From an uncultured Spirochaetales bacterium (lineage in GTDB: Bacteria > Spirochaetota > Spirochaetia > Treponematales > Breznakiellaceae): a DNA stretch of 19,587 nt. The position numbers and the translations under genes are program-made. Where the stretch lies: the NCBI GenBank assembly GCA_964541755.1, contig CAZIRF010000048.1, forward strand, positions 1-19,587, read 5' to 3'. Positions within the stretch are counted from its first letter, which is position 1. Every line of letters begins with the position of its first letter. Positions 153 through 17,844 of this stretch are shown piece by piece. The notes beneath the pieces are model-generated. The model worked only from the letters and a program-made list of their open reading frames with translations. It was not told the DNA's origin and did no database searches.

Positions 153-153
153 T

Positions 154-833: not shown

Positions 834-905
834 GGGTGATACTGACGGCATGCGAAGGGCATCTTCTGCTGCCATGAAAATTGTTGAAAGGAGGAGCACG
901 GCAAG

Positions 906-2515: not shown

Positions 2516-3249
2516 ACACACAGACAACGACCATACTCCAGCTTGAGGGCGTCAAGCGCACCTACACGAAGGGCGAAGGCGAAGTGCACGCACTGGCGGG
2601 CGTGGATCTTGCCATCAAAAAGGGCGAGTTTCTCGCCGTCGTGGGGCCCTCGGGATCGGGGAAGACGACCCTGCTCAACATCGTCGGTTGCCTGGACAGC
2701 CCCACCAGCGGCGCAGTGAGCTACCTGGGACGGCCCCTTGCGGCCATGAGCGAGAACGAGCTTTCCGACTACCGCAAGGAGCACATCAGCTTTATCTTCC
2801 AGTCCTACAACCTCATCCCCGTCCTTACCGTGCGGGAAAACGTGGAGCTCCCCCTGGTTATCGAAAAGAAACTGGACAAACAGGAAATCCGACAGAAGGC
2901 AGAGGCCATACTCGCCCAGGTGGGGCTCGAAGGACTTGGGGAGCGCTACCCCCGGGAGCTCTCCGGCGGGCAGGAACAGCGCGTCGCCATTGCGCGGGCC
3001 CTTATCAAGGACCCGGTGATTATCCTGGCCGATGAACCCACCGCAAACCTCGACTCGCACACGGCGAAGGACATCATCGACATCATGCGCCGCATCAACC
3101 ACGAGACAGAGGCGACCTTCATCTTTTCCACCCATGACCCCATGGTCAAGGAGCGGGCCGACCGCGTCATCACCATAAAGGACGGGGCCATTTCCAGCGA
3201 CGAGGTCAAGCCATCTGCCGGAACGGGCAAAGCAGGGGGGACGACATGA
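2512..3249 (+). CDS. ABC transporter ATP-binding protein, LolD/MacB-type, 245 aa.
   Basis: Walker A GPSGSGKTT, Q-loop, ABC signature LSGGQEQRVAIARAL, Walker B ILADEPT, H-loop STHD. ATGA overlap with the upstream stop; SD GGGGAGG. Confidence 0.9.
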   Translation: MNTQTTTILQLEGVKRTYTKGEGEVHALAGVDLAIKKGEFLAVVGPSGSGKTTLLNIVGCLDSPTSGAVSYLGRPLAAMSENELSDYRKEHISFIFQSYNLIPVLTVRENVELPLVIEKKLDKQEIRQKAEAILAQVGLEGLGERYPRELSGGQEQRVAIARALIKDPVIILADEPTANLDSHTAKDIIDIMRRINHETEATFIFSTHDPMVKERADRVITIKDGAISSDEVKPSAGTGKAGGTT

Positions 3250-4499
3250 GCACCCTCTTCAAGATCGCCTGGCGCAATGTATGGCGCCACGGCAAACGAA
3301 CAGCCCTTACCATTATCACCATGGCCTTTGGCTTGGGCATCTTCATGTGGATGGACTCGATCATGAAGGGCATGGACCGCATGGGCCTTGAGGCCATCGT
3401 CGAGTACACCGACTCCTCCCTGCGCCTTACAAGCCGCGAGTACGCAGATGAGCTGCGCGGCGCTCCCTTGGACTATGGTATCGAAGCGGAACTACCAGCC
3501 CTTCGCCGCTTTCTGGCCTCGTACAAGGGGGTCGAAGCCATTTCGGTTCGCACCCGCTTTACCGGCGAGCTCTCGAACGGCGTTGACGGCATACCGGTTT
3601 TGGCCATCGCTGTTGAACCGGCAGACGATGCAGCCGTTTTCGCGCTGGTGGATCACCTCGAGGGCACCTGGCTCGATGGCCGGGGGAATCGCAGCATTGT
3701 CATGGGGATAAAATTGGCACAGACCCTGGACCTTGCAATCGGCGACAGCATCACCCTTTCTGCCCGCGACCGCAACGAGGCCATGAATGCCGACGAATTC
3801 ACCATTATCGGCCTCTTGAACACCCCCTCGCCCGAGGTCAACAAGAGCGGTGTCTACCTCGCCTACGCCGACGCGGAAGAATTCCTGGCCCTCGAAGGCC
3901 TGCGCACCGAGCTCGCCCTGTCCATGACGCGCCGGGTAAACCTCAAGGACGGCATGGCAGACAGCGACCTCCTGGCCGCTGCCATTGAAGAGAAGTGGCC
4001 CCAGCTCGAAGCCCGCAGCTTTGGCGAAATTGGCCGCAGCTTCCTGCAGCTCTCGCAGACCAAGGGGAAGTCCGCCGGCATGATGATCGCCATCATCCTC
4101 CTTATCGCCGGGGTGGGCATCGCGAACACCATCCTCATGAGCGTCTACAGTCGCATCCGCGAGATTGGCGTCCTGCGCGCCTTCGGTCTCAAGCCCAAGG
4201 ACATCTCGCGCCTCTTCCTCATCGAGGGGGGGATTATCGGCTTCGTCGGGGCCCTCGCCGGCCTCGCCTTCGGTATCGCCCTCGTCGCAGCAAACGTCTA
4301 CCTGGGCTTCCCCATGGAAGAGCTCATGGGCAACAACGACATGGGCATGCCCATCATGGGCACGCTCTACGGCGAGTGGAACCCATCCACCATGGCCACC
4401 GCCGTCATTTTCGGCGTCATCGTCGCCTTGATAGCCGCGCGTTCGCCAGCCAAAAAGGCGTCCCGCATGGAGGTAACCAATGCCCTCAGATTCAATTGA
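3246..4499 (+). CDS. ABC transporter permease, FtsX/MacB-LolCE type. N-terminal TM, large periplasmic domain, three C-terminal TM helices. 417 aa.
   Basis: N-terminus IAWRNVWRHGKRTALTIITMAFGLGIF. C-terminal FtsX-like block (IAIILLIAGVGIANTILMSVYSRIREIGVLRAFGLKPKDISRLFLIEGGIIGFVGALAGLAFG). ATGA overlap with the ATPase stop. Confidence 0.85.
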   Translation: MSTLFKIAWRNVWRHGKRTALTIITMAFGLGIFMWMDSIMKGMDRMGLEAIVEYTDSSLRLTSREYADELRGAPLDYGIEAELPALRRFLASYKGVEAISVRTRFTGELSNGVDGIPVLAIAVEPADDAAVFALVDHLEGTWLDGRGNRSIVMGIKLAQTLDLAIGDSITLSARDRNEAMNADEFTIIGLLNTPSPEVNKSGVYLAYADAEEFLALEGLRTELALSMTRRVNLKDGMADSDLLAAAIEEKWPQLEARSFGEIGRSFLQLSQTKGKSAGMMIAIILLIAGVGIANTILMSVYSRIREIGVLRAFGLKPKDISRLFLIEGGIIGFVGALAGLAFGIALVAANVYLGFPMEELMGNNDMGMPIMGTLYGEWNPSTMATAVIFGVIVALIAARSPAKKASRMEVTNALRFN

Positions 4500-5820
4500 T
4501 ACCCGTCCCGCTGGGAAGGGAATGCGTGCTGCAGGGCTTTCCCCTGCACGGCACAGAATATCGTCGCACTGGATTCTCGACCTCGCCCTGCGTAACACCC
4601 GCCGCAACAAGAGGCGCACGGTTCTCGCCGTAAGCTCCATAGCCCTTTCGGTCATGCTTATCACCTTCCTGGGCGGCTTTGCAGGCGGCGTCCTCGACAA
4701 CATGGTGCGGAACATCACCAAGAACACGAGCGGCCACGTGCGCATCATCACCAAGGGCTTTGCAGAGCGCGAATCCTTCATGCCCTTGGACGAGCTCGTC
4801 GCCGACCCCGGGGCCGTCAAAGGGGCCATTATGGCCGACGAGCGCCTCTCGAAGGAGGTCACCGAGGTCGCCGAACGCATTACCTTTGGCACCCTCCTCT
4901 CCAACGGCCCGGCCACCAAGGCCGCGATGGGCTTTGCCGGCGAGCCCGCCATCGAGAAAGATCTTATCGGCCTCGACCGCTCCCTCGTCGCAGGACGCTC
5001 CATCGCCGGCCCCGGCGAAACCATTCTGGGCGAAACCCTCGCCGACGACCTGGGACTGGCCATCGGGGAGCGCATCAAGGTTGTCACCCAGGGGGCCGAC
5101 TACGGCCTGCGCCTCAAGACCTTCGAAATCGTCGGCCTTTTCAAGACCGGCCAGTACGCATTGGACAGCGCCCTCTTCCAGATTCCCATCGAAGACGCGA
5201 AGAGCTTTTTGCGCACCGGCGGGGCCGTCCAGCAGATACTCGTCATGCTCAAGAACTACGAGCGCGCAAACGCCGCCCGCGACCTAATCGATGCAGCACT
5301 CGCCCGATCCGGGCTCAACCCCAACGACGAAATCCTCGTCCAAAGCTGGAAGGACGTGGGCGACTACCCCGGCATGATCGAGTACATGGAGCAGATCTAC
5401 TTCTTCATCTACCTCATCGTCGCCTTTTTGGGGGCCTTCATCATCACCAATATACTTACGATGGTGGTCCTCGAACGCCGCCGGGAGATTGGCATCCTCA
5501 AGTCGATGGGCCTGCGCCGCCGCGAAATACTCGGCCTCTTCCTCGCCGAGGGCGGCATCATGGGCGTTATCGGCAGCGCCATCGGTTCCCTCCTGGGTAC
5601 CGGGCTCTGCATCAGCTTTTCGATCTTCGGCATCGACTTTTCCGACGCGATGGGAACCCTCACCATGCCCGTCGACCCCGTCTTCTACAGCCGGGTGGAC
5701 CCGCTGCAGATCATCACCCTCTTTATCCTGGGCGTGGCCGTCTCGCTCATCGTTTCGATCGGGCCCAGCCGCCGCGCGGCCCGCATGAATGCCGTCGACG
5801 CCATCAAGAGCGTCGCGTAA
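4480..5820 (+). CDS. Second, non-identical FtsX/MacB-LolCE-type ABC permease, 446 aa. Probable heterodimer partner of the previous permease.
   Basis: Same architecture (ALRNTRRNKRRTVLAVSSIALSVMLITF ... LIVAFLGAFIITNILTMVVLERRREIGILKSMGLRRREILGLFLAEGGIMGVIG). GGAGG lies 6 nt upstream of the ATG at 4480, with a 20-nt overlap with the preceding gene. An alternative start is the ATG at 4522. Confidence 0.8.
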   Translation: MPSDSIDTRPAGKGMRAAGLSPARHRISSHWILDLALRNTRRNKRRTVLAVSSIALSVMLITFLGGFAGGVLDNMVRNITKNTSGHVRIITKGFAERESFMPLDELVADPGAVKGAIMADERLSKEVTEVAERITFGTLLSNGPATKAAMGFAGEPAIEKDLIGLDRSLVAGRSIAGPGETILGETLADDLGLAIGERIKVVTQGADYGLRLKTFEIVGLFKTGQYALDSALFQIPIEDAKSFLRTGGAVQQILVMLKNYERANAARDLIDAALARSGLNPNDEILVQSWKDVGDYPGMIEYMEQIYFFIYLIVAFLGAFIITNILTMVVLERRREIGILKSMGLRRREILGLFLAEGGIMGVIGSAIGSLLGTGLCISFSIFGIDFSDAMGTLTMPVDPVFYSRVDPLQIITLFILGVAVSLIVSIGPSRRAARMNAVDAIKSVA

Positions 5821-5833
5821 ACCGGAGGACCCC

Positions 5834-6631
5834 ATGAACAGAAGATTCATACTGATACTGACGCTCGCTCTCGCCACCTTCGTCACGGCCGTCCCCTTCC
5901 TGGCCGCCCAGGAATCTGGTGCGGCCGCTGGCGCCGGGGCGGCCACCCCCACCGCCCAAGAGATCCTCGCCCGTATGGACGCGCAGAAGGTCTTCGGCAC
6001 CGCCAGCTACCGCGCCGTCATGGAAATAGACCTGGGGCGGCGCGTTCTTCGCAAGGAGATGCGGGCCTTCGCCGATGGCGAGACCAAGGCCTTCATCGAA
6101 TTCACCAACCCCGAAGACCGCGGGGTACGCTACCTCAAGATCGACGATGAACTGTGGATGTACTTCCCCGACGAGGCGGAGACCATCAAGATCTCCGGCC
6201 ACCTGCTCAAGGAAGGGATGATGGGTAGCGACCTCTCCTACGAGGACGCCCTCGAGACCGGGGCCCTCGCCGAAAAACACACCATCACCCTCGCCGGGAG
6301 CGAGGAGGTCGATGGCCGTAAGTCTTGGGTGCTGGAACTTGTGGCCAAGGTCAAGAAGGTCCCCTACGAGAAGCAGAAGATATGGATTGATGCAGAGCGC
6401 TATGTAAGCCTTAAAGGCGAGATGTACGCCCAAAGCGGCAAGCTCCTCAAGACGAGCCGGGCCCTGGCCGTCGAGCGCATCGGCGACCGCTGGTATGTGA
6501 CGAAGCTCCAGATGGAAGACAGCCTCAAGAAGGGCAGCGGCACCACCTTTACCATGGAGGAGATCGCCTTCGATGTCGAGCTCCCCGACAACCAGTTCAC
6601 GATACGCGCCCTTACGCGCAGGGGCCGCTGA
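5834..6631 (+). CDS. Periplasmic LolA-like protein (outer-membrane lipoprotein-sorting/carrier fold) with signal peptide, 265 aa.
   Basis: Signal peptide MNRRFILILTLALATFVTAVPFLAAQ. The size, signal peptide and position immediately downstream of a LolD/LolCE-type ABC transporter suggest a LolA-like carrier; I could not verify any family motif from sequence and the call is based on context (the blocks KEMRAFADGETKAFIEFTNPEDRGVRYLKIDDELWMYFPDEAETIKI and RWYVTKLQMED are quoted only as landmarks). GGAGG lies 8 nt upstream of the ATG at 5834. The track ORF starts 15 codons earlier with no RBS. Confidence 0.6.
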   Translation: MNRRFILILTLALATFVTAVPFLAAQESGAAAGAGAATPTAQEILARMDAQKVFGTASYRAVMEIDLGRRVLRKEMRAFADGETKAFIEFTNPEDRGVRYLKIDDELWMYFPDEAETIKISGHLLKEGMMGSDLSYEDALETGALAEKHTITLAGSEEVDGRKSWVLELVAKVKKVPYEKQKIWIDAERYVSLKGEMYAQSGKLLKTSRALAVERIGDRWYVTKLQMEDSLKKGSGTTFTMEEIAFDVELPDNQFTIRALTRRGR

Positions 6632-7713
6632 TGAAGGGAAAGACTCAGTCCCGGCCGTATCCGCAAGCCCCGGTGCAGCCGGTCCATTCAACAATTTTCA
6701 TGGCAGCACTCCTGGGCCTCGGGGCCCTCCTCGCCCCCGGCTCGCTGGCAGCCCCCCTCGCCGCCCAAGAGGACGAGCCCCGCGTACAGCTGGGCGGCTG
6801 GGTGCGCAGCGAGCTGGGCGCGGACTTCGTCAACGGGGCCGATCCCCTCCAGAGCGGCGCGACCGCCCTGCGCCTTGACCTGCGCGGCGGCGACCGGGAT
6901 GTCGGCAGTGCCGAGGCCTCGGCGCTGCTCTCGCTCGACTACAACAAGGCCGGCGCCCCCAGCGTCGACTACGACATCTACACCCTCGCCTTTACTGTTT
7001 ACGCAGGCGACGTGGACCTCTCGATGGGGCGCCTCATCGCCAACTACGGGACCGGAACCGTCTTCTCGCCCACAGACATCTTTAGCGATGTGAACCCGGT
7101 GGACTTCTCGCGTTCGGGCACCGAGCTCGCCCGCCTCATCTGGTACACGGGGGATTTTTCTGCCCTCGAAGCCGTAAGTACCCTCTCCAAGCCCTTTAAC
7201 GACGTCGACGCCCTCCTTCGCTACCGCGACCAATTCGCAGGCTGGGACTGGGGCGCCCAGGCGATATGGTTTGGCGGCACCCCGGACGGCGACGAGGACG
7301 CCGCCCTCGCCTTCGGCCTCGACACCAAGGGCGACCTCTTCTTTGGCATAAGCGCAGAGGCCCTTGCCCGCCTGCCCCTGTCCTGGCAGGGCTTCGACGG
7401 GGACGTGGAGTGGACACTCATGGGGGGGCTGGACTGGTCAATACGGGGCAAGCTGATGATTGACGCGGAGTATCAGTGGTCGAACCGCGGGGAGGCTCAC
7501 CAGCTCTTTTTCTCGCTTTCGAGCCCCATAAGCCTGACGCTCTCAATCTCCGCCCACGCCATCTTCATGCCTGCAAGCGAACAGTGTCTGGCCATAGGGG
7601 CTGCAAACTGGGACTTCGCCCGTGCGGCCCGCGCCGACCTGCGCTACAGCTACACGACGGGTCCGCTCCAGGAAGCCCATATAATTATGGCGGGCGTCCA
7701 ATACTCATTCTGA
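6631..7713 (+). CDS. Secreted protein, probable outer-membrane beta-barrel, with signal peptide and a C-terminal ...GVQYSF. 360 aa. Function unknown.
   Basis: Signal peptide (MAALLGLGALLAPGSLAAPLAAQ). Alternating hydrophobic beta-strand pattern, rich in D/G/Y/W/S. Terminal aromatic residue F, typical of OMPs. The start ATG overlaps the stop of the LolA-like gene (TGATG); an alternative start is the ATG at 6700. Confidence 0.55.
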   Translation: MKGKTQSRPYPQAPVQPVHSTIFMAALLGLGALLAPGSLAAPLAAQEDEPRVQLGGWVRSELGADFVNGADPLQSGATALRLDLRGGDRDVGSAEASALLSLDYNKAGAPSVDYDIYTLAFTVYAGDVDLSMGRLIANYGTGTVFSPTDIFSDVNPVDFSRSGTELARLIWYTGDFSALEAVSTLSKPFNDVDALLRYRDQFAGWDWGAQAIWFGGTPDGDEDAALAFGLDTKGDLFFGISAEALARLPLSWQGFDGDVEWTLMGGLDWSIRGKLMIDAEYQWSNRGEAHQLFFSLSSPISLTLSISAHAIFMPASEQCLAIGAANWDFARAARADLRYSYTTGPLQEAHIIMAGVQYSF

Positions 7714-7728
7714 CACAAAAAAAAAGAA

Positions 7729-7775
7729 GGCTGTCGCAAAAGTCACTCAAGACTTTTGCGACAGCCCCTTTTGTC
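7729..7775. terminator. Strong bidirectional rho-independent terminator. Perfect 16-bp stem GGCTGTCGCAAAAGTC / GACTTTTGCGACAGCC with loop ACTCAA. It is flanked by an A9 run upstream and CCTTTTGTC downstream.
   Basis: Direct reading. It lies between the convergent OMP gene (+) and the yjfB-like gene (-), and can terminate both. Confidence 0.85.
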
Positions 7776-7789
7776 ATGATTTACCGGTA

Positions 7790-7999
7790 CTACGCCTGCA
7801 GGTCAATGTTTTGACCGAGGGCGGGGTCCGCGAACGACTCTTGCATCATCCCGACCACAGCGGCGCCCTGATTTTCGGCGCTGTCCATGGCCATCTTCTG
7901 CACCTGCATGCCGGCGCTCTGGATGAGATCCATCCGGGAAAGGCTTGTCGAAAGCTGTGCGATATCCATGCCTCCAATATACGGCATCGAAACCGACAA
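7790..7999 (-). CDS. yjfB: YjfB-like putative motility protein, small (59-69 aa).
   Basis: The sequence MDIAQLSTSLSRMDLIQSAGMQVQKMAMDSAENQGAAVVGMMQESFADPALGQNIDL matches the YjfB-family pattern (MDIAaLSm.mSq...q....v.K.AmD...). The TTG at 7999 has an AGGGAGG SD 6 nt upstream and would add MSVSMPYIGG. The family-typical start is the ATG at 7969, whose GGAGG is only 1 nt away. The start is therefore ambiguous. Confidence 0.55.
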   Translation of the reverse strand: MSVSMPYIGGMDIAQLSTSLSRMDLIQSAGMQVQKMAMDSAENQGAAVVGMMQESFADPALGQNIDLQA

Positions 8000-8000
8000 A

Positions 8001-8861
8001 TCAATCCTCCCTCTGGCGTATCAGGCGAATCTTGTCCCACACAAAGAGGCCCAGTGCAGCAGTCGCGACCGCACAGAGCAAAACGACGGCAATGCCCAAT
8101 TCTGCAAGGAGGGCCATCCCCAGGGCGCCGAAGGCCGCCGCAAGTATTTCCAACGCGGCCGGGGGGAGTTGCTCGACCAATGAGAGCGATATGGTACAGA
8201 AGGAGTTCTGCTCGCTGTAATCGCCCAGAGAGACCCCCAAGTCCTGTATCTGCCCCTCGATTTCAAGGATCTTGGTCTCGAGGGCCACCAGATCCGACAG
8301 GTCTGCCCCGGCTGTGCGCAGGGATTTGAGGCCGTCGCGGGTCTTTTCAAGGGAAAGACGGCTCGCCTCCAGGGCGCGATATTCGGCAGTACGGTCGCTC
8401 TTTACGATTTCAATCCCGCGAAGACGTGCGATACCCGAAAAGGCTTCAACCGTGGCGTCAAAGGCCTCGGGGACCACCCCCAGCTTGAGCGAGAGGACCC
8501 GCGAGCCGGGAAGGCCGCTCACATTCTCGCTCTGTATGACGGCGTCCGCCTTGCGCGCGAGGGCTCGGATCTCCTCGTTGTCCTTCTCGAAATTTGGGCT
8601 CGAAAGACGCACGGAGGCAACCCGCTCGTACTTCTGGTCGACGACCTGGCTCCCGCCCCCTTGGGCAATGACGATTTTCTCGCTGGCGTAATTGGCCTTG
8701 CTCCGCGACGAGGGCATGCTGTTCTGCACCATGTTGTCAAACCCGAAAACATCCTGCGGTGAGCGAAAGACCGAGACGAGCTCCGCGACAAAAAAACCGG
8801 CAAAAAGGACAAGATAGACGAGAATGGCCGCCTGGATGGCGCGTTTCACGGATTTTTTCAC
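8001..8861 (-). CDS. DUF4349-like bitopic membrane protein. N-terminal TM/signal anchor, central coiled-coil region, C-terminal TM. 286 aa.
   Basis: N-terminal hydrophobic helix (AIQAAILVYLVLFAGFFVA). Heptad-like central region (LSDLVALETKILEIEGQIQDLGVSL). C-terminal TM (ILAAAFGALGMALLAELGIAVVLLCAVATAALGLFVW). The DUF4349 call is from memory. GTG start at 8861 with AGGAG 5 nt upstream. The stop lies 1 nt before the yjfB TTG. Confidence 0.5.
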   Translation of the reverse strand: MKKSVKRAIQAAILVYLVLFAGFFVAELVSVFRSPQDVFGFDNMVQNSMPSSRSKANYASEKIVIAQGGGSQVVDQKYERVASVRLSSPNFEKDNEEIRALARKADAVIQSENVSGLPGSRVLSLKLGVVPEAFDATVEAFSGIARLRGIEIVKSDRTAEYRALEASRLSLEKTRDGLKSLRTAGADLSDLVALETKILEIEGQIQDLGVSLGDYSEQNSFCTISLSLVEQLPPAALEILAAAFGALGMALLAELGIAVVLLCAVATAALGLFVWDKIRLIRQRED

Positions 8862-8963
8862 ACAGACTCCTTGTCGTGGGGGATGCGGATTTTCGGCCCC
8901 GGTACGGGGCCCGCGTGGTAAGGGTACGGGGCGGGCCGCGCAAGCGGCCCGCCTGGCCTGCCA

Positions 8964-9935
8964 TCAGCCGTGATCGTCCCCCTCTTCTTCCTCACCGGAG
9001 AGTATGCGGGTATCCACGAGGGCGGCACGATCCTTGAGGGAAGAGGAGAAACTGATACCGGGGGCGGCCGTCTCGCCCCGCGCGGGGATGAGTATGTCCT
9101 CGCCCGTGCGGGGGTTCTTGACGACGCGGGGCTTGCGCGGGGGTCGCAGCTTGAGCGAGAGGCGGCCGATGCGTCCCAAAGAGACCCGTTCGCCCAAGAG
9201 GAGCCCCGATTCCACGGTGGACAGGAAGTCCGCGACCAGCTGGCGGGTACGCGTAATGGTAAGGCCGTTCTTGCCGGCAATGTAGCGGGCCATGGCGTTG
9301 AGCGTGAACTGTTCGGTCCCGCCGGCGCCGTCCTGACGGGTCATGGTAAGGTCCCGGTTGAGTTTCATGAAGCCATTGGTGATGAAGATACCCGCCTCGC
9401 GTATGCGCTTTTCCTGTTCGCCGGCATCGAGGCGGGCGGGACAGACGGCGATGCGGTAGAGCTTCGAGGTGGACTGCAGGGGGCCGGCGCGGAAGAGGAG
9501 GGGCTTGTCGCGTGCAGGGGCTTCGGCGAGGACGGCTCCTTCGCCGGATACTATTGAAGGAACATCGCTGCGCAGCTTGATGGACGCATACTCGAGGCTG
9601 CGCCCGAAGCCTTCGCCGGGGGGGCCGCCTTCGGGCGCCGCCGCGGGCCCCAAGGTAACGAGGGAGCCGGAGTAGGTCAGGGCTATGAGGGCCCGGCCGT
9701 CGTCCGGGGGAAGGGAAGCGCAATCTTCCAGTTCAAGAAGGTGCGACTGGCTCTCCCATAGTTCGAATTTTGCGAGCCAGTTGGCCGCGAGCTGCTCGCG
9801 CAGAACATCGGCACCCGCTCCGTCGCCACTGGACAGGGCAGCGGCCAAGGCAGATGCAGTAGCGGTATCGGCCAGTAGCCCGTCAATTTGGGCTTGAATT
9901 TCTTCGGGGAGTGTCCCGAACACGTTTTTGGTCAT
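8964..9935 (-). CDS. Two-domain protein of 323 aa. An N-terminal domain of unknown function (about 200 aa) is fused to a C-terminal HU/IHF-type DNA-binding domain and an acidic tail (EEEEGDDHG).
   Basis: C-terminal HU fold: LTITRTRQLVADFLSTVESGLLLGERVSLGRIGRLSLKLRPPRKPRVVKNPRTGEDILIPARGETAAPGISFSSSLKD. Compare the HU consensus ...[28 protein letters not shown]...F..GK.LKD. The N-terminal domain is paralogous to CDS 10421..10948. ATG at 9935 with GGGGG 6 nt upstream. Confidence 0.75.
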   Translation of the reverse strand: MTKNVFGTLPEEIQAQIDGLLADTATASALAAALSSGDGAGADVLREQLAANWLAKFELWESQSHLLELEDCASLPPDDGRALIALTYSGSLVTLGPAAAPEGGPPGEGFGRSLEYASIKLRSDVPSIVSGEGAVLAEAPARDKPLLFRAGPLQSTSKLYRIAVCPARLDAGEQEKRIREAGIFITNGFMKLNRDLTMTRQDGAGGTEQFTLNAMARYIAGKNGLTITRTRQLVADFLSTVESGLLLGERVSLGRIGRLSLKLRPPRKPRVVKNPRTGEDILIPARGETAAPGISFSSSLKDRAALVDTRILSGEEEEGDDHG

Positions 9936-9950
9936 TGAAGACCCCCTTTT

Positions 9951-10298
9951 TTACTGCCCGGGGACAGCACTTATCTTGAGCTCGGTCTTCCCCACGAGGA
10001 CGGTGTCCCCGGCAGCGAGAAGCCGTTTTTCCATCTTTTGCAGGGGTTTGCCGTTGACGAAGGTCCCGTTGGTGCTGTTGAGGTCTTTGATGGTATACTC
10101 GCCCTGGGAAAACTCCACGAGGGCGTGGCGCCTGGAGACGAGGCTGTCGCCGGTGATGACAATGTCGCAGCCCTCCTCCCGACCAATGAGAAAGCGCTTG
10201 GGGATGAAGATCGATCGGTCACGGAAGCGCATGGAGAGGCTCTTTTCCTTGGTTTCGCGCGCCTTGGGGCTGCGCTTGTATACTGTCGAATCGTCCAT
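9951..10298 (-). CDS. Small soluble FHA-domain protein (about 115 aa; 93 aa if it starts at the ATG at 10232).
   Basis: Canonical FHA motifs: FLIGREEGCDIVITGDSLVSRRHALVEFSQGEYTIKDLNSTNGTFVNGKPL (G-R, SxxH, NG). The track ORF start at 10442 would run through the divergent promoter and the neighbouring gene's RBS. I prefer the ATG at 10298, which has a weak SD. The ATG at 10232 is the alternative. Confidence 0.7.
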   Translation of the reverse strand: MDDSTVYKRSPKARETKEKSLSMRFRDRSIFIPKRFLIGREEGCDIVITGDSLVSRRHALVEFSQGEYTIKDLNSTNGTFVNGKPLQKMEKRLLAAGDTVLVGKTELKISAVPGQ

Positions 10299-10374
10299 AT
10301 CTTCGATGATACGACGCTTTTTGCCAGTCGGCAATGTTCTTGTTGCCCAAATGCGTGCGTCGGGGGCAAGTGCT

Positions 10375-10384
10375 GTGTTATATT
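10375..10384 (+). promoter_or_regulatory. Candidate extended -10 promoter element TGtTATATT for the plus-strand gene at 10421. It lies in the divergent intergenic region.
   Basis: A TGn+TATATT match sits about 37 bp upstream of the ATG. No clear -35. The region also carries TTGCC/GGCAA half-sites (see findings). Confidence 0.3.
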
Positions 10385-10420
10385 GTGTGCAAGGCGTTTT
10401 GCCGAAAAAAGGAGAACAGC

Positions 10421-10948
10421 ATGGGAGAACGATTCGATTCACTGCCCCCGTACATCCAGGATCACATCCGCCAGCTCGTCAAACCCTCGGGCCTTCCCGA
10501 AGGCGACGAGAGTCTCGAGGCCCTTGCCGGTGCCTGGAACGAGAAACAGGAGCTGTTCGCACAAGAGGCGGCCACTCACGATATGGAGGAAGTCGACTTC
10601 TTTGCAAAGACGGAAGAGCGCGGCGCCCTGGCCATGACCTGGTCGGGATCCCTGGTAAACATCGGCCCGCTGGTCGACGGGAAGCGCGTCTGCGAGTACA
10701 GCTCCATCGGGCTGCGCAAGGATGTCCCCGACAGCGCCAAGGAAGAGGAGAGTGCCCTCGAAGCCGATCTCGAGAGCGATGCGGTCGCCGCCTTTGCCAA
10801 GGGTCCGGTGCGAAAGACGAGCCCCCTGCTCAAGATCGCCGTATTCAAGAAGGAAATGCCCCCCGCCGTCGAGGAGGAAGAACTCGCCGCCCTTACCCAG
10901 GTAATTGGCGACAGCTTCGTGGAAGTAAACAAGACCGTAATCCGCTAA
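10421..10948 (+). CDS. Acidic protein of unknown function, 175 aa. It is a stand-alone paralogue of the N-terminal domain of the HU-fusion protein at 8964..9935.
   Basis: Alignable blocks with the HU-fusion N-domain: F(D/G)(S/T)LP..IQ..I..L; LAGAWNEKQELFAQE vs LAANWLAKFELWESQ; ALAMTWSGSLVNIGP vs ALIALTYSGSLVTLGP; EYSSIGLRKDVP vs EYASIKLRSDVP; LLKIAVF vs LYRIAVC; IGDSFVEVNK vs IFITNGFMKLNR. Strong SD AAGGAG 6 nt upstream of the ATG at 10421. The track ORF starts at a TTG 29 codons earlier with no RBS. Confidence 0.7.
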   Translation: MGERFDSLPPYIQDHIRQLVKPSGLPEGDESLEALAGAWNEKQELFAQEAATHDMEEVDFFAKTEERGALAMTWSGSLVNIGPLVDGKRVCEYSSIGLRKDVPDSAKEEESALEADLESDAVAAFAKGPVRKTSPLLKIAVFKKEMPPAVEEEELAALTQVIGDSFVEVNKTVIR

Positions 10949-10967
10949 GGCGCAAGGGGACAGGTAC

Positions 10968-12869
10968 ATGGCAGAGGAACCCGTTTTCATAGGCAAGTAC
11001 CGCTTGCTCAATCTCGTGGCGAAAGGGGGGATGGGGGCCGTCTACAAGGCGGTCCACCCCACCCTCAAGCGCGAAGTCATACTCAAGAAGCTCACCGTAC
11101 GCAATGCCCAGTTCATCGAACGCTTCAAACGCGAAGCGGCCATCATGATGGACTTCAAGCACGACAACATCGTTGCGGTCTGGGACCACTTCAAGGAGGG
11201 TGCCTCGTACTATATCGCCCTCGAGTACGTCGACGGCTTTTCACTGGGAGATCTCGTCAAGAGGGAGCGGGCCCTCCCCTCATCCCTGGCCATGTACCTC
11301 TTCCTGCACGTTTGCCGCGCCCTCAAGTACGCCCACGACCGCGGCGTTATCCACCGCGACATCAAGCCCGCCAACGTCCTGCTCTCCCGCTCGGGAGAGA
11401 TCAAGCTCGCAGACTTTGGCATAGCCACCCGCGACAACGAGACCGATACGGGGCTCACCACCCAGGGCATGACCCTGGGGACCCCTTCCTACATGCCCCC
11501 CGAACAGTTCGAAAACTCCAAGAGTGTCGACAAGTGCGCCGATATCTACGCCATGGGGGTCATGCTCTACGAAATGGTCACCGGCAAGAAGCCCTTCCCC
11601 GGCAACTTCGCCCCGGACACCATCGCCAAGATCCAGAAGGGCCAGTACCTGCGGGTCCAGCGTATCAATCCCAAGGTGGATCGTACGGTGGTCCGCCTCT
11701 GCCAAAAGATGATACGCCCCAAGAAGGAGCAGCGCTACCAGGACCTCGCGCCGGTCATACGCATCCTCGAACGCCGCCTCAAACAGGAGGATTTCGCAGA
11801 GGAAAAGGACCGCCTCCACGCCCTCATGAACCGGCGCCCCTTTACCCCAAAGAGAAAGCCCCGAAAAATGCTGCGCCGCATACTCTCCATCGCCCTTCCA
11901 TCGGCGGCAATCCTCGCCATCGGCCTCTCGCTCATTGTCTCGAGCGGCATCTTCCGCGGCTGGTTTCAGGCACATGACTGGGGGCGCCTCCGCGTCGAAG
12001 TGGCCCGCCCCGCGAAACAGGAGGAAGCCCTCCCCGTTTCCATCAAACTCTACACCGAAAAGAACGGCGAGCTCTCCTATCTGCAAAACCTCGAGATTCC
12101 GGGCCCCTGGCAGCGCACAAAGAGCTCGCTCACAGCCCTCCTGCCCGAAAACCGCCAAACAAATACAGATCAACTCTCTACCGACAGCGTATATTTGCCT
12201 GCCGGCTGGTACCGGCTCAAGATACAGACGGGGAACAAAGTCCTGTGGGATTCGGTGTACCTTGAACCGCTCGTTGTTCAGCGTATGCAGGGCCGCGGAG
12301 CGGGCCTGATTCTCGACTACGAGCCGGGCGAGGCCATCCCCAAGCCGGTTACCTTCAGCTTCGCCATACGCGATGAACGCCTCAAATCGGACATCACCGC
12401 GCAGTGTGACATTCTCTTCCAGACAAAGGCGGGCGCATGGGTCCCCTTCGAGCGCTTCCCCGAATCCGAACGCCTCTCCGGGCGTGTCTTTCGCATACGC
12501 GTAGCCGCGAAGGGCTACGACAGCCGCGTATTCTCGCTCTTGGTGGAACCGGGGCAAACGGAGCTGGGCATACAGGCCTCCCTCGCCCCGCTTACCGCCA
12601 CCCTCGTCCTCAAGACCGGCCTTTCGCGCGTATCCTTTACCCTCAACGACCAGAAGGCCGTGCTTTCCGGTACACAGGAGCGCCGCCTCGTCCCCCTGCG
12701 CCTCTCGCGCGGCGAAGAACTCAAACTGGAACTGCCACCGGGCAGCTGGGCCATTGCCAGCGGCTCGGGTAGCGACGAAGAGCGCATGGAATTGCAGCTG
12801 GCCCCCGGGGAAACCCGCAGGGTGGAGTTTTACCGGGACGATGGCAGCCGCACCATACAGTTGCGTTGA
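10968..12869 (+). CDS. Hanks-type Ser/Thr protein kinase, 633 aa. Cytoplasmic kinase domain, one TM helix, and a roughly 300-aa extracytoplasmic beta-rich domain (possibly PEGA/Ig-like repeats, not PASTA).
   Basis: Gly-loop AKGGMGAVYKA, catalytic Lys in VILKKL, catalytic loop HRDIKPANVLL, DFG (LADFGIA), activation-segment GTPSYMPPEQ. TM LSIALPSAAILAIGLSLIVSSGIF. C-terminal motifs LPAGWYRLKI, AAKGYDSRVFSL and LPPGSWAIA are reminiscent of PEGA domains. Confidence 0.9.
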   Translation: MAEEPVFIGKYRLLNLVAKGGMGAVYKAVHPTLKREVILKKLTVRNAQFIERFKREAAIMMDFKHDNIVAVWDHFKEGASYYIALEYVDGFSLGDLVKRERALPSSLAMYLFLHVCRALKYAHDRGVIHRDIKPANVLLSRSGEIKLADFGIATRDNETDTGLTTQGMTLGTPSYMPPEQFENSKSVDKCADIYAMGVMLYEMVTGKKPFPGNFAPDTIAKIQKGQYLRVQRINPKVDRTVVRLCQKMIRPKKEQRYQDLAPVIRILERRLKQEDFAEEKDRLHALMNRRPFTPKRKPRKMLRRILSIALPSAAILAIGLSLIVSSGIFRGWFQAHDWGRLRVEVARPAKQEEALPVSIKLYTEKNGELSYLQNLEIPGPWQRTKSSLTALLPENRQTNTDQLSTDSVYLPAGWYRLKIQTGNKVLWDSVYLEPLVVQRMQGRGAGLILDYEPGEAIPKPVTFSFAIRDERLKSDITAQCDILFQTKAGAWVPFERFPESERLSGRVFRIRVAAKGYDSRVFSLLVEPGQTELGIQASLAPLTATLVLKTGLSRVSFTLNDQKAVLSGTQERRLVPLRLSRGEELKLELPPGSWAIASGSGSDEERMELQLAPGETRRVEFYRDDGSRTIQLR

Positions 12870-12896
12870 CGATCGAAACAAGGAGATCATACTGAT

Positions 12897-13802
12897 ATGA
12901 CCAACGCCATCCGCCGCCTCATCATCATTTGCATGGGGCTCGCCGCCGGGCTCTGCGCCTGGCCCCTCGTGGAACTCGTCCTCGCCTCGCAGGAGGCCTT
13001 TCCCTCATACTTCCTCTACTCAAGCGCCATCGGCAGCCTCGTGGGCGCAATCCTGGGGGCCTTCTTCGCCGCAGCCGGCGGACTCTGCGACCGCGCCCCC
13101 GGAAAGGCCCTCGACGGGGCCTGGAAGGGCGCCCTAGCCGGCCTCGCGGGGGGCGTCCTCTCGACCCTCGTCGCCCAAGGCTTGCTCTTTTACTTTGGCG
13201 ACCGTTTCCTCTACCGCCAGAGTCCCGACGGCTTTACCGAAGGCAACAGCAACACAGCGCTCCTCATCGCGCAAGCTGCCGGCTGGCTCGTCGTCGGGGC
13301 GGCCATCGGAATAGCGGAAGGGCTGCGGGCCAAATCGGCCCGCAAGGTCGCCCTGGGATTTATCGGCGGCATTGCGGGAGGGGGCCTCGGGGGGCTTCTC
13401 TTTACCTGGCTCACTATCAAGGCCCCCGACTTCAATCCGGGCCGCCTCCTGGCCCTTATGCTTATGGGGGGGCTTATCGCCGTTTTCTACGCCCTCTTGG
13501 AACGGCGTTTTGCGGTGGGAAGCCTCAAGGTATTGAACGGGCCCCTCAAGGGCAAGGAATTCCTTGTAAACCAGCGCCGCCTTCGGCTGGGAAGCGACAG
13601 TGCCTGCGACATAGTCCTTGCCGGGTATCGCGATGTGGCCGCCCACCATGGCGAGCTCATCGTCAAAAAAGGCGAGCTCGTCCTGCGCCGCGGGGAGCGG
13701 GTGGTCATCGTCAACGACCGCGAAACGGCCGGGCAAACGCTCAAGCTCGATGACGTCATCAAGCTGGGAAGCGCGACCTTCCTCTACGGCTACTTCGGCT
13801 AG
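12897..13802 (+). CDS. Polytopic membrane protein (about 5 Gly/Ala-rich TM helices) with a C-terminal cytoplasmic FHA-like domain. 301 aa.
   Basis: Hydrophobic Gly-rich segments through residue 200 or so. C-terminal KVLNGPLKGKEFLVNQRRLRLGSDSACDIVLAGYRDVAAHHGELIVKKGELVLRRGERVVIVNDRE is a divergent FHA (G..R..LGS...DIVL......HH.E). AAGGAG lies 11 nt upstream of the ATG. Confidence 0.65.
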   Translation: MTNAIRRLIIICMGLAAGLCAWPLVELVLASQEAFPSYFLYSSAIGSLVGAILGAFFAAAGGLCDRAPGKALDGAWKGALAGLAGGVLSTLVAQGLLFYFGDRFLYRQSPDGFTEGNSNTALLIAQAAGWLVVGAAIGIAEGLRAKSARKVALGFIGGIAGGGLGGLLFTWLTIKAPDFNPGRLLALMLMGGLIAVFYALLERRFAVGSLKVLNGPLKGKEFLVNQRRLRLGSDSACDIVLAGYRDVAAHHGELIVKKGELVLRRGERVVIVNDRETAGQTLKLDDVIKLGSATFLYGYFG

Positions 13803-13812
13803 GGAGCAGAAT

Positions 13813-15426
13813 ATGACACAGACGACAAAGAGAAGATCAATACTGATAGTCCTGGCGGCCCTTCTTGCGGCCGGCCCGATTTCTTCCCTGGCGGCAAACG
13901 GGACAGACAGCGCCACGGATGCGGGCAAGACGGCCGGCCGCAGTAACCCGCTTACGGTGGGCATTACCCAAATCGACACCTCGCGTCTCATGGCCTTCCA
14001 GCGCAACCGGCTCTACATACGGGCCTTGAGCCCCCGCGGCGAGGTCCTCGAGGCCCCGGACCTCCTGGGCTCGGAGCAAACTATCAGCCTTGATGTGCAT
14101 GAGTCCTCCGACGGCATTCACTTTGTTCGGGCAGGACGGGCTCAGGTTCAAAGGGCCCACCCCCGGGATGCGGGTATTTCCTTTCTGTTTCTCGTGGACA
14201 ACTCGCTGTCCATGTACAATCAAACCCTGGTCACCTCCGATGGCAGGGAAGGCGCGAGCAGGGCAGAAGCGGCAAATGAGGCCGCGAAGCGCTTTCTCCT
14301 GTCGATAAGCTCTGCCAGGGACAAGGTGGGGTTGGCAAGTTTCAACACCCGCTACGAGCTGGTCCTGTCTCCCACGGCAAATCTCGACGAGAGCGGTCCC
14401 GCCCTCGACCGCATTGTGGAACCCGGCCCGGATGACGGCTATACAGAGCTCTATGCGGGCCTCGTACTCGCTTCGCGCGATCTGGGAGAGGTCTCCGGGC
14501 GGCGAGCCCTCGTCGTCCTGTCCGATGGCGAGAATTTCCCCTGGCACGGCAAACGGGGGAGCCCCAGCCCGGTTTTCGGCGAAAAGGACTGGCGGGCCGA
14601 CGAGGCCCTCGAGGAGGCGGTACGGCAGGGGGTAACGGTCTTCGCCATCCACTTTGGCACCGAACGCGACGATCACTTGTCGCAGTTGGCCCGCGCCAGC
14701 GGGGGCCAGGTCTTCAATGCATCCAACGATGAAGAACTCGCCGGGGTCTACTCGACCATTCGCGACAACATTCGCCGCGAGCTCCTGCTTGAGTACCGCG
14801 CCCTCATGCTCGAAGGAGATCGGCGCTGGGTACGCCTCGTACCGGCTGCAGAGGGGCAGGAAATCGGAACCGCATCACCAGTGGCGCCGGGCGCGCGGGC
14901 GGGAGACCGCTACTACTATACAGGGACGGTCTTCGGAGCCGCAGGCACCGCGCTTTCGCCCTGGTTCTTGCTTCTTGTCCCGCTGGCCCTCCTCTTCCCC
15001 CTCGTCATGGCCCTCATTCCCTTCGAGAAGCCCAGCATGTCTGCCAATCTCTCGCTCCTCTACGCAACGGGGGCCGGACGCGGCACCAAGGTCTTCGCAG
15101 TGGGAGACCGTACCGTCATCGGGGCCGATGCCCGAGCCGATGTCACGATAGTGGGCAACACCCGTCTGGAGGAAAGCCCGGTAACCATCATTCGCGACGA
15201 GCGGACGGGCTCCTACACCATTAAAAGCAGCGAGGCGATAACGGTCAACAACCGGCAAGTGCGCGAAAAGACGCTCGTAAACGGGGATGTGATCAATGCC
15301 GATGGCACCCTGGTGGTCTTCGACGACAACGATGGAAGCGTCATTCAGGGGAAAGGGCTCCTCGCACGCATGAAACGCTTTTTGGCAGGCCAGGGTGGAA
15401 AACAAAAGGCCCGCAAGGGGAAATAA
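13813..15426 (+). CDS. Secreted von Willebrand factor type-A (vWA) domain, single TM helix, then a C-terminal cytoplasmic FHA-like domain. 537 aa.
   Basis: Signal peptide MTQTTKRRSILIVLAALLAAGPISSLAANG. vWA with MIDAS-like DxSxS (LFLVDNSLSM), then ...GYTELYAGLVLASRDL..., ALVVLSDGENF, VTVFAIHFGTERDDHLSQLARASGGQVFNASNDEEL. TM ALSPWFLLLVPLALLFPLVMALIPF. FHA-like KVFAVGDRTVIGADARADVTIVGNTRLEESPVTIIRDERTGSYTIKSSEAITVNNRQV. GGGAG lies 7 nt upstream of the ATG at 13813. The track ORF's upstream extension overlaps the previous gene and looks spurious. Confidence 0.8.
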   Translation: MTQTTKRRSILIVLAALLAAGPISSLAANGTDSATDAGKTAGRSNPLTVGITQIDTSRLMAFQRNRLYIRALSPRGEVLEAPDLLGSEQTISLDVHESSDGIHFVRAGRAQVQRAHPRDAGISFLFLVDNSLSMYNQTLVTSDGREGASRAEAANEAAKRFLLSISSARDKVGLASFNTRYELVLSPTANLDESGPALDRIVEPGPDDGYTELYAGLVLASRDLGEVSGRRALVVLSDGENFPWHGKRGSPSPVFGEKDWRADEALEEAVRQGVTVFAIHFGTERDDHLSQLARASGGQVFNASNDEELAGVYSTIRDNIRRELLLEYRALMLEGDRRWVRLVPAAEGQEIGTASPVAPGARAGDRYYYTGTVFGAAGTALSPWFLLLVPLALLFPLVMALIPFEKPSMSANLSLLYATGAGRGTKVFAVGDRTVIGADARADVTIVGNTRLEESPVTIIRDERTGSYTIKSSEAITVNNRQVREKTLVNGDVINADGTLVVFDDNDGSVIQGKGLLARMKRFLAGQGGKQKARKGK

Positions 15427-15431
15427 CAGAT

Positions 15432-16433
15432 TTAGCTGGCGGGCTCTCCCAGCGAGACAATCCCCGACCAGGGGTCGAAGGGCTGGCCCGGCAGAATGAA
15501 GGCGGCCTGCATGAGGGCTGCATTGTGGATCTGGATGAAGCGGCCATCCGCACGCAGGTAAAACCGCTCGCGTGAGGGGCGGTGCCCGCCTATCATGACG
15601 CCGGGCTTGACCGATTCGGAAAAGAAGGAGCGGAAGGTTTCCTCGACGGCGCCTTCCACCGCCTGCCCGATGTCCGTCCAGGTAAGTGCCTCGACAATAT
15701 CGCCATCGAGCCGCGCGTTTACCACTTCTTCGACCGAAAGCGGGAATGCGGGTTCTGCGTGGCAGGCCAAAAAGCCCCCGCCGCGGGCCATGAGGGGCAA
15801 GGTGTCTTCAAAGGCGGCATAGGTCTCGAAAAAATCGGCACCCAGGATGCGAAAGGTCCAATCGGCGGCCATCTCGCCTTCGGAGGCGAACTTCCCGTAG
15901 GGGTGGTCCCCCTCCCCTTCCCGATTGCGAATGTTGTCGTGATTCCCCTTAAGAAAGAAAAAGCGCCCCGGATACGCCGCGACAAGACGCGACACATGGG
16001 CCATGGCGGTAAAGGCCAGCGACATCTCCTCGCGCATGGCGGCGTCTGTTTTCCAGCCCTCTTGGTACTCGAGCCAGGCGGCGCGCCAGCGTTCCTTGCC
16101 GGCGAGGCCCTCGCTGTGCGGCCCGTCCCCCAACATGACGACTTGGATGCGACCTGCCTCGAGGGCATCACGCACGGTACGGGGCTCGCTTCCTGCCGTT
16201 TGCGGTGGTATCAGCCAGGACTCCAGGGCGTCCAGGACCGCTGGACGGGCGTGGAGATCCGGGAGAATCAGGCAGGGAAGCCCCGGGTCAAGCTCAATGA
16301 GCGCACCGGGTTCACCATCTCTTCGCACGGGGCGTATAGCTGCCGGCAGGCCAAGCAATGCCTCTCGGGCGGCGTCGAAAGCCCGTTGCCAATCCTTTCT
16401 TTTCGTTGGCAAATCATCACTTTTTTGTGGCAC
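15432..16433 (-). CDS. Calcineurin-like metallophosphoesterase (PPP-family-like phosphoprotein phosphatase), 333 aa.
   Basis: Metallophosphoesterase motif order: LILPDLHARP (a degenerate GDxHG), VVMLGDGPH, FFLKGNHDN (GNHD/E), further downstream His residues. GTG start at 16433 with AGGAG 5 nt upstream. Ser/Thr-phosphatase specificity is inferred from context (adjacent STK/FHA locus). Confidence 0.6.
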   Translation of the reverse strand: MPQKSDDLPTKRKDWQRAFDAAREALLGLPAAIRPVRRDGEPGALIELDPGLPCLILPDLHARPAVLDALESWLIPPQTAGSEPRTVRDALEAGRIQVVMLGDGPHSEGLAGKERWRAAWLEYQEGWKTDAAMREEMSLAFTAMAHVSRLVAAYPGRFFFLKGNHDNIRNREGEGDHPYGKFASEGEMAADWTFRILGADFFETYAAFEDTLPLMARGGGFLACHAEPAFPLSVEEVVNARLDGDIVEALTWTDIGQAVEGAVEETFRSFFSESVKPGVMIGGHRPSRERFYLRADGRFIQIHNAALMQAAFILPGQPFDPWSGIVSLGEPAS

Positions 16434-16495
16434 GAATGCTCCTCATGCCACCAGTATACCACCTTGTGTGCGCTACGCCAGAGTCTGATTGCGTT

Positions 16496-17434
16496 TCAAT
16501 TGAGGTCAAGGCTGATAGCGATGGCGGCGGGGCTCACCAAAAGGCGATAAGGGGGTTTTTGCCAGCCCTGCCCCGCTGCGACCGCCGTCCTGTCGGCAGA
16601 ATCCCGTCCGCTTCCCCGGACGCGGTGCAGCATGGGCACCAGGAAGCCTGCCGCCGATCCGACGAGTGCCCCAACGATGACGTCGCTGGCGAAGTGGCTG
16701 CCGCTGGCAACGCGCAAAATGGCGGTAGATAGTGCGAAGCCGTATGAACCGCCAATCACCACCCATCGCCAGGGCGAATCGGGGAAATACGCGGCAAAGC
16801 TGTAGCTGGCAAAACCCGCACCGGCAAAGGCCATGCTCGTATGGCCGGAGGGAAAGGAATCAAACCAATCCTCCCGGGTATCGCTGTCATCGGGGTATCC
16901 GTCTGCATAGAGGTAGGGACGCGCACGGGCGAAAAGGGTCTTGCCGGTCTCCTTGAGGCCCCAGGCCAAAAGGGCCGTCTCGAGGTACATCGCGCCGATG
17001 GTCACCCAGTCCCCGACCGGCGCTGCCGCGAGGGCTGCAGGGGCGAAGAAAGCCGCAAATTGGGTGATGTCGGAAATCGTATCGAGGGTGCCGTTATAGG
17101 CTGCCAGAAAGGCCCGGTCAAAACCCCATACCTCGGAAGGATCGAAGGGGGGAAGTGCGGCGGGCCCGGAAGCCCTGTCGACAACAAAGGGCACGAGATT
17201 GAGACCGATAACCGCCCCCGCGAATGACAGGTCCACCGCAGGGTTCAAGGCAAAGCAGGTACGCGAGCCCAAGAGCCAGTTGGCACCTGGCGCCGCCTCA
17301 AGCGTGGGCGCCCCCAAAGGGGCTGGTGCTGTGGTGGGTGCGGGCTCTATGGCGGGTGAAGACTCTGCGGCGGGCAGATTGACCAAAACGATGATTGCGA
17401 GGCAAACAATACAGAAAAATCGTTTCAATTGCAT
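16496..17434 (-). CDS. PAP2-superfamily (type 2 phosphatidic-acid/lipid phosphatase) secreted or membrane-associated protein, 313 aa, starting at MQLKRFFCIV.
   Basis: PAP2 motifs KxxxxxxRP (KETGKTLFARARP), PSGH (FPSGHTS) and SRxxxxxHxxxD-like (SGSHFASDV). N-terminal signal peptide followed by an Ala/Pro-rich linker. I chose the ATG at 17434. The track ORF extends 106 codons upstream through low-complexity GC-rich sequence. Confidence 0.75.
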   Translation of the reverse strand: MQLKRFFCIVCLAIIVLVNLPAAESSPAIEPAPTTAPAPLGAPTLEAAPGANWLLGSRTCFALNPAVDLSFAGAVIGLNLVPFVVDRASGPAALPPFDPSEVWGFDRAFLAAYNGTLDTISDITQFAAFFAPAALAAAPVGDWVTIGAMYLETALLAWGLKETGKTLFARARPYLYADGYPDDSDTREDWFDSFPSGHTSMAFAGAGFASYSFAAYFPDSPWRWVVIGGSYGFALSTAILRVASGSHFASDVIVGALVGSAAGFLVPMLHRVRGSGRDSADRTAVAAGQGWQKPPYRLLVSPAAIAISLDLN

Positions 17435-17844
17435 GTCCTTTTTTCTTTCATCACAAGCCGATACTGTGGATCGGGGTTTGAAAGCCTTAAAAACCCATAG
17501 GAAAAACTGTATAAAAATCTTCAAACGGTGACGAAATTTGTACGGTTTTCCTGATATCTTGGAACAAAATATCACACAGATCCGGAAATAACAGCTACAT
17601 CCAAGAGATTGCCCCGCTACGGGCCCCGAACATGCTCGTGTTGATAAGGCATGAAGGGGGCGCGGCGGCTTCCCCATGCCAGAAGCCCCCCTGCCCCAGA
17701 GAGCGAGCGGAACTGCTTTACGCAGTTCCGCCACGGTCAAGTCGCACAGCATCTTGACCCGGCCCCCCTGCGGTCGGGCCGCGCCCCGGCCGCTCCCGCG
17801 CCCGTGTCGGGTCCCGCCCTACCCCCGCGAGAGAAGGAGGGGTA

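Follow-up and report, generated by a model that had tools for sequence, protein, structure and literature searches.

We analysed a 19,587-nucleotide stretch of DNA from an uncultured Spirochaetales bacterium (contig CAZIRF010000048.1, positions 1 to 19,587 of the forward strand; hereafter the window) and focus here on two divergently oriented genes whose products, A and B, share a domain with no match among the families and structures that we searched. In protein A (323 amino acids; open reading frame on the minus strand, positions 8964-9935), this domain is followed by a short linker, an HU-type DNA-binding domain and an acidic tail. In protein B (175 amino acids; plus strand, 10421-10948), it stands alone and is strongly acidic, and the B gene opens an operon encoding a membrane Ser/Thr kinase. 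Both families recur across Spirochaetota, B in nearly constant association with the kinase and A most often next to B. The pair is probably the kinase's link to the chromosome.

The shared domain and its two main carriers

Residues 6-194 of A and 5-171 of B are homologous, with 29% identity (BLASTP, E 1e-17) across an alignment that includes the blocks TYSGSLV..GP and EY(A/S)SI.LR.DVP. An earlier note on this DNA, made from the letters alone, had placed A and B at these positions and strands, and had proposed from these same motif blocks that they carry one N-terminal domain. That proposal holds in a real alignment, in which the similarity is significant. Identity between the A and B families is 26-40%, while identity to the window copy is 41-98% inside the A family and 46-98% inside the B family. 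Because it is lower between than within the families, the duplication is older than the spread of these lineages, and the alignments indicate that A and B are true, ancient paralogues forming separate families. Both families conserve, at a level of 85% or higher, a common set of 25 positions. In B numbering, these are W39, K42, F46, T73, Y74, S75, G76, S77, L78, G82, P83, R89, Y93, S95, I96, R99, D101, V102, P103, F125, S134, I139, A140, F166 and N170.

Structure prediction gave matching topologies for the two copies. The AlphaFold2 model of B, built on a 150-sequence alignment, has a mean predicted local distance difference test score (pLDDT) of 92.2 and a predicted template modelling score (pTM) of 0.86; it consists of two helices (residues 10-23 and 29-52), eight strands between residues 55 and 142, and a long C-terminal helix (148-174). 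The shared domain of A (residues 1-198; positions 9342-9935, minus strand) has helices at 11-22, 24-34 and 42-66, about eight strands between 70 and 164, and a long helix at 171-197, in a model of the whole protein with a pLDDT of 87.6 and a pTM of 0.73.

Searches for relatives of this domain returned nothing of substance, as the earlier note had anticipated for the N-terminal region of A. Pfam and NCBIfam gave no match to B or to residues 1-200 of A at E ≤ 0.1. When 30 members of the B family were compared with Pfam at E ≤ 10, no family recurred, the most frequent hit being found for 3 of the 30 members and the best E value being 0.0027. A Foldseek search of the B fold against the PDB yielded no significant relative (best E 0.089, template modelling score < 0.3), viral models gave nothing significant (best E 0.022), and a profile search of PDB sequences with the shared domain gave no match. 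Within the reach of these Pfam, NCBIfam, PDB and viral-model searches, the shared domain has neither a curated family model nor a relative of solved structure. It is a Spirochaetota-specific alpha/beta domain.

The C-terminal part of A is a regular HU protein, again in line with the earlier note. Pfam family PF00216 matches residues 214-302 with E 4.5e-11 and 43.3 bits, against a cut-off of 22.4. In the predicted structure, a disordered linker (201-205) is followed by a two-helix stalk (212-223 and 227-246), a beta-sheet with extended arm (strands within 257-296) and a C-terminal helix (298-306), which together make up the HU fold, with pLDDT mostly above 90. We assign the HU/IHF-type DNA-binding domain to residues 208-313 (positions 8997-9314, minus strand); its beta-arm, RKPRVVKNPRTGEDILIPA, is intact. 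Across 101 members of the A family K268 and R270 are invariant, and N274, P/L275, T277, G278, P284, A285 and P292 are conserved. These residues correspond to the R-N-P-x-T-G arm of HU/IHF proteins, which in the window copy reads KNPRTGE. Because the arm residues are conserved, DNA binding by A is probably retained, and its HU part looks functional.

Both families are sizeable, and both have gone largely unremarked in databases. About 300 homologues of A, typically of 298 amino acids, were found; PF00216 is present in all those listed, and the only database name they carry is 'HU family DNA-binding protein'. The named A homologues all come from metagenome-assembled Spirochaetota genomes, except for one labelled Magnetospirillaceae (P0053). 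The B family comprises 152 homologues of 174-176 amino acids, all from Spirochaetota and all annotated 'hypothetical protein'.

That the stand-alone copy is strongly acidic had been noticed before in the window, and we find the same throughout its family. The window B has an isoelectric point (pI) of 4.54 and a net charge of -15 (34 Asp and Glu against 19 Lys and Arg), and the family spans pI values of 4.1-5.1. Over the same 172 alignment columns, the mean net charge is -16.3 ± 4.6 in the B family versus -2.4 ± 3.7 in the A family, so that B exceeds the matching region of A by about 14 negative charges, family-wide. The gap is spread over the N-terminal helices, the loop at 100-124 and the C-terminal helix (-5.3 versus +0.9), and position 168 is Glu in at least 85% of B proteins and Lys in 91% of A proteins. 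The acidity of B relative to the A domain is a real, specific and family-wide divergence. It would fit pairing with a basic surface, but we found no sign of charge compensation: over 59 paired loci, the charge of B and that of the HU part of A are uncorrelated (rho -0.10, p 0.44).

The shared domain also occurs outside A and B. A profile search of 1.84 billion representative sequences left about 160 usable matches at E ≤ 1e-10; the profile (296 positions) included HU columns, and the weak tail of its matches is ordinary HU. A third architecture of about 300 amino acids joins the shared domain to a helical C-terminal region of about 115 residues, which bears the motif DLFxKWIILxWFRIGG...YKWxESEKKDFDIGLxKALEEIP and has no Pfam match. 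Its members (P0298, P0306, P0309, P0314, P0316 and 33 relatives; loci L084-L087) come from metagenome-assembled Spirochaetota genomes. Chemoreceptor (methyl-accepting chemotaxis protein) genes lie directly upstream of the third-type gene in two of three genomic contexts. Two further proteins combine the domain differently. P0280 (276 amino acids) joins it to DUF2442, and P0317 (701 amino acids, with the gene call as deposited) reads signal peptide, vWA domain, transmembrane segment, shared domain and third-type C-terminus, an order that would place the shared domain on the cytoplasmic face of a vWA membrane protein.

The kinase operon and its conservation

In the window, the B start codon at 10421 is preceded at 7 nt by an AGGAG ribosome-binding site, and B homologues all share this start. 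The gene that follows (10968-12869, plus strand) encodes a membrane Hanks-type Ser/Thr kinase (PF00069, E 2e-52) with its kinase domain at residues 13-257, one transmembrane segment near residue 310 and an unassigned outer domain of about 300 amino acids. Next come a polytopic membrane protein with a C-terminal YscD-type FHA-like domain (12897-13802, plus strand; PF16697, E 8.8e-15), whose score of 20.5 bits against the Pfam FHA model falls under the cut-off of 20.7, and a protein with a signal peptide, a vWA domain, a transmembrane segment and a weak cytoplasmic FHA-like domain (13813-15426, plus strand; VWA_2, E 1.3e-12; Yop-YscD_cpl, E 0.042 at residues 485-564). For the latter, the start at Met66 and the transmembrane segment were read from the translation, and the predicted orientation puts the vWA domain outside the cell and the FHA-like domain inside. 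Gaps between the plus-strand genes from B through the vWA gene are only 19, 27 and 10 bp, and overlaps occur in relatives. The window contains no Rfam family and no tRNA.

Facing the operon is a gene for a calcineurin-like metallophosphoesterase (15432-16433, minus strand), which matches PF00149 weakly. At least 90% of 60 homologues keep its motifs DxH, GD, GNH[ED], H and GH, and because these metal-binding motifs persist, the enzyme is probably active. It is the likely partner phosphatase of the kinase, and its substrate would then be a phosphoprotein; the cluster contains no PP2C phosphatase.

On the other side, a small soluble FHA protein of about 115 amino acids, counted from Met49 of the listed open reading frame, is encoded at 9951-10298 (minus strand; PF00498, E 5.9e-22), 15 bp upstream of A and on the same strand. 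Its sequence holds the canonical motifs GR...SRRH...STNGT. The kinase and two further FHA proteins had been reported by the earlier note as neighbours of the pair; the genes are there, but the FHA-like domains of both membrane proteins lack, in our reading of their sequences, the canonical Arg, Ser and His that bind phosphothreonine. Of the three FHA-type domains in the window, that of the small FHA protein alone carries the canonical residues (GR, SRRH, NG). The small FHA gene occupies the same position in eight related loci (L004, L005, L009, L063, L067, L072, L073 and L075). Between this gene and B lies a putative divergent control region (10299-10420, assigned to neither strand) that separates the FHA-A unit from the B-kinase operon. 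Its sequence includes one minus-strand promoter-like site ahead of the small FHA gene (TTGCCG-17-TATCAT, 10334-10306), and TGTGTTATATT, upstream of B at about 10370-10380, resembles an element of related intergenic regions described below.

A scan of one genome per species identified 213 genomes with a relative of B, of which the best 80 loci were analysed. The link to a Ser/Thr kinase and FHA cluster, first suggested from the window, is not specific to it and is conserved in about 80 species-level Spirochaetota genomes. A kinase gene is found downstream of B in 63 of 66 loci. The gene for the FHA-like membrane protein is kept after the kinase, and the vWA gene is kept as the last of the operon. 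In 54 of 66 loci the phosphoesterase gene separates B from the kinase, and it is often translationally coupled to B; in four more, as in the window, it is found elsewhere in the locus. In the window and its closest relatives (L004, L005, L009 and L016), it lies beyond the vWA gene on the opposite strand, whereas the usual site, as judged by comparison with L010-L082, is the gap between B and the kinase. None of the best 80 of the 213 genome matches comes from a cultured organism; all are metagenome-assembled. One such genome, Zod_Metabat.719, has two B-type genes (loci L019 and L076), one in a canonical kinase operon and the other without any cluster gene nearby.

Gene A is divergent from B and adjacent to it in 48 of 72 loci, and in 5 of the 72 it is found elsewhere in the locus, usually directly after the vWA gene. 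In one of the loci with no A within 10 kb, on the 3.25-Mb chromosome OW818665.1, A and the B operon are some 460 kb apart and both are retained. B is tied much more tightly to the kinase operon (63 of 66) than to A (48 of 72). Where A and B are neighbours, the intergenic length is nearly fixed at 61-63 bp in many loci (L010, L012, L014, L015, L020-L023, L030, L036, L038, L041, L046 and L052), and this short region includes the two ribosome-binding sites along with a TGTGnTACAcTATAc element resembling an extended -10 box. We found no conserved operator in the A-B intergenic regions: there is no phylum-wide palindrome, only promoter-like elements that recur within clades. Pairwise divergences of the cluster proteins, A included, are tightly correlated with one another (mirror-tree, r 0.82-0.92), a sign of vertical co-inheritance.

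A possible signalling route to an HU protein, and its alternatives

We tentatively read this locus as a phylum-specific kinase cassette in which the HU fusion is the cytoplasmic output and B is a partner or competitor that cannot itself bind DNA. A and B would belong to one signalling cassette, built around a membrane Ser/Thr kinase with its own outer domain. The kinase would work with two membrane partners, the FHA-like polytopic protein and the periplasmic vWA protein with its cytoplasmic FHA-like tail, and would be counteracted by the calcineurin-like phosphoesterase. The shared domain would serve as the module that couples A and B to the kinase machinery or to one another. Because this domain precedes an intact HU domain in A, A would be the output that binds DNA. 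It would be a nucleoid-associated protein, or an architectural protein of transcription, whose activity is regulated and whose gene position suits action at the divergent promoter region, probably alongside other sites. B, co-produced with the kinase and devoid of DNA binding, would occupy the same docking site or form mixed oligomers with A, and would thereby set how much A is active. What the sequences show is the homology, the integrity of the domains, the conserved gene order and the family-wide divergence in charge; all physical interactions, the direction of regulation and the use of phosphorylation as the signal are elements that we infer. A more far-reaching version, in which the shared domain is a new fold through which the kinase complex directly switches an HU-type protein, with B as a built-in antagonist, so that a dedicated kinase-to-nucleoid pathway exists across much of the phylum, appears doubtful.

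Several observations weigh against a cassette of this kind. No A gene is found within 10 kb of B in 19 of 72 loci. The pair flanks a small FHA gene in the window, as the earlier note had pointed out, but this gene, the only canonical FHA gene of the cluster, is adjacent in just 15 of 80 loci. When divergence of the A domain is compared with that of B, the partial correlation is 0.39, no higher than for other pairs of cluster proteins; since this value is unexceptional, the mirror-tree analysis demonstrates co-inheritance only and does not single out A and B. The third-type gene is not beside a kinase in any of the three contexts examined, which indicates that the domain needs no kinase. It is a portable module for which a kinase is not strictly required, as the occurrence of the third type away from kinases demonstrates. 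Finally, no flexible loop holds a threonine that both families conserve. The idea that a conserved threonine (pT-x-x-hydrophobic) serves as an FHA ligand gained no support from the comparison, which revealed no convincing site. The only threonine universal to both is T73, within TYSGS; it is predicted to lie in a beta-strand and is followed by Gly at +3, features that make it a poor candidate for an FHA ligand. T159, T163 and T172, all in the C-terminal helix, are family-biased, and the linker of A shows a loose N-R-[TS]-L-[ST] pattern in which Ser and Thr are mixed. FHA domains are at least as likely to dock on the kinase itself as on A or B.

Part of this evidence would be expected if A and B had no direct functional link. 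B would then serve the kinase/phosphoesterase complex as a structural or regulatory subunit, A would be a nucleoid protein in its own right that self-associates through the same fold, and their adjacency would be a remnant of duplication. The closer tie of B to the kinase than to A, its frequent translational coupling to the phosphoesterase gene, the 460-kb separation in one complete chromosome and a mirror-tree signal that is not specific to A and B all agree with such a separation. We nevertheless regard it as improbable, as adjacency has been retained in most lineages despite identities of 41-58% within the A family, the divergent intergenic region has stayed at a compact 61-63 bp in many lineages, and in others A has an alternative site right after the vWA gene. 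This degree of retention exceeds what would be expected for a relic. Another possibility is that the shared domain senses a small ligand, one that is probably anionic (a nucleotide or metabolite, for instance), making A a ligand-regulated HU protein and B a ligand-binding subunit of the kinase operon, with no need for contact between them. Residues invariant in A, B and the third type are mostly polar or aromatic (W39, K42, S75-G-S77, R89, Y93, R99, D101, S134 and N170), a pattern better suited to a binding or catalytic pocket than to a plain dimer interface, and the third architecture retains them away from any kinase. Fold searches revealed no likeness to a known ligand-binding fold, however, and the cluster conserves no enzyme that makes or breaks a messenger, which leaves a sensor of this type unlikely.

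The marked acidity of B suggests yet another role, that of a DNA-mimic-like inhibitor covering the basic surface of the HU domain of A, or of ordinary HU, with the shared domain only recruiting B to its target. The earlier note had raised the DNA mimic along with a dominant-negative partner of the fusion, and none of the analyses made here demonstrates either action. About 14 extra negative charges relative to the A region, family-wide, would suit such a function, and acidic proteins that block HU are known, namely DMP12, DMP19 and phage Gp46 (PMC3643605, PMC5722371, PMC8892312). Yet the charge of B does not follow that of the HU part of A, B is less extreme than the classic mimics at a pI of about 4.5 and 175 amino acids, its fold matches no solved mimic, and it stays with the kinase rather than with A. 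Together these points make a mimic very unlikely.

Neighbouring genes and relation to known systems

Beyond the cassette, the window holds several genes outside the subject of this analysis. A gene for a DUF4349 protein (8001-8861, minus strand) comes after A, and just downstream of it lies a 69-residue open reading frame (7790-7999, minus strand) that matches YjfB_motility with E 1.1e-15. The run of genes at 1322-7713 (plus strand) encodes a Band 7/SPFH protein, an ABC ATPase, two FtsX/MacB-type permeases, a LolA-like protein and a 360-residue secreted protein without a Pfam match, and looks like a lipoprotein- or lipid-export unit. At the other end of the window, a 418-residue predicted lipoprotein with the lipobox LIVSGC and a C-terminal SH3_3 domain is encoded at 17845-19101 (minus strand). 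The G+C content of this gene is 0.39-0.42, against about 0.62 in the rest of the window, and it may have been acquired horizontally. A shorter dip, to 0.46-0.51, occurs at 17250-17700 within a PAP2 gene.

HU is usually viewed as a small, abundant and largely unregulated packer of the chromosome, and its known regulation consists of scattered modifications. In mycobacteria, phosphorylation of HupB by the Ser/Thr kinases PknE and PknF lowers its binding to DNA (PMC4754617). In A, the C-terminal 110 residues form a regular HU domain, and the neighbouring kinase recalls the phosphorylation of HupB. Classical HU proteins, however, have about 90 amino acids with low-complexity tails at most, whereas A has a folded 200-residue domain before its HU part and a stand-alone paralogue of that domain. 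A 2017 survey of HU architectures described the fusions HU-CCDC81 and HU-HIG, and its main text includes neither kinases nor FHA domains (PMC5499826).

The cassette itself is of a recognizable type. The FHA-vWA-kinase-phosphatase module of Sulfolobus, ArnA/ArnB with ArnC/D and PP2A, controls gene expression (PMC6509490), and in Deinococcus DRA0331-0334 unite FHA, vWA, kinase and phosphatase parts as one operon. As here, kinase, vWA, FHA-type domains and a phosphatase occur together, and the archaeal output is likewise gene expression. The spirochaetal cluster differs in having a divergent calcineurin-like metallophosphoesterase rather than PP2C, in that two of its three FHA-type domains are YscD-like and without phosphothreonine-binding residues, and in carrying a new domain twice, once on an HU protein. 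PpkA-PppA-Fha1 of the Pseudomonas type VI secretion system is another cassette of FHA, kinase and phosphatase components.

For the pair itself, the closest parallels are antagonists that share only the oligomerization domain of a DNA-binding regulator, such as SinI for SinR in Bacillus subtilis and Id for bHLH proteins in eukaryotes. B is similarly paralogous to the non-DNA-binding part of A (E 1e-17) and adjacent to it in 48 of 72 loci. It is unrelated to these antagonists in sequence or fold, is as large as the complete shared domain and is encoded in a kinase operon. HU-binding mimics (DMP12, DMP19, HI1450 and Gp46) resemble B in being acidic proteins near, or acting on, an HU protein, but they have no fold or sequence similarity to B, which, unlike the known mimics, is paralogous to part of its presumed target. 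Our search of the literature found no description of the A-B pair or its architecture. What is known here is the type of cassette and the HU domain; what is new is the domain family that joins them, with its three architectures.

Together, these findings describe an intact HU domain preceded by a folded 200-residue domain of no known relatives. The stand-alone paralogue of the latter is a fixed part of a membrane kinase operon in some 200 species of Spirochaetota. With its three architectures, this new family of domains merits a database entry and a structure. If the link between A, B and the kinase is functional, it would define how a signal from outside reaches a nucleoid protein, and would give a first handle on what kinase/FHA/vWA cassettes control in spirochaetes.

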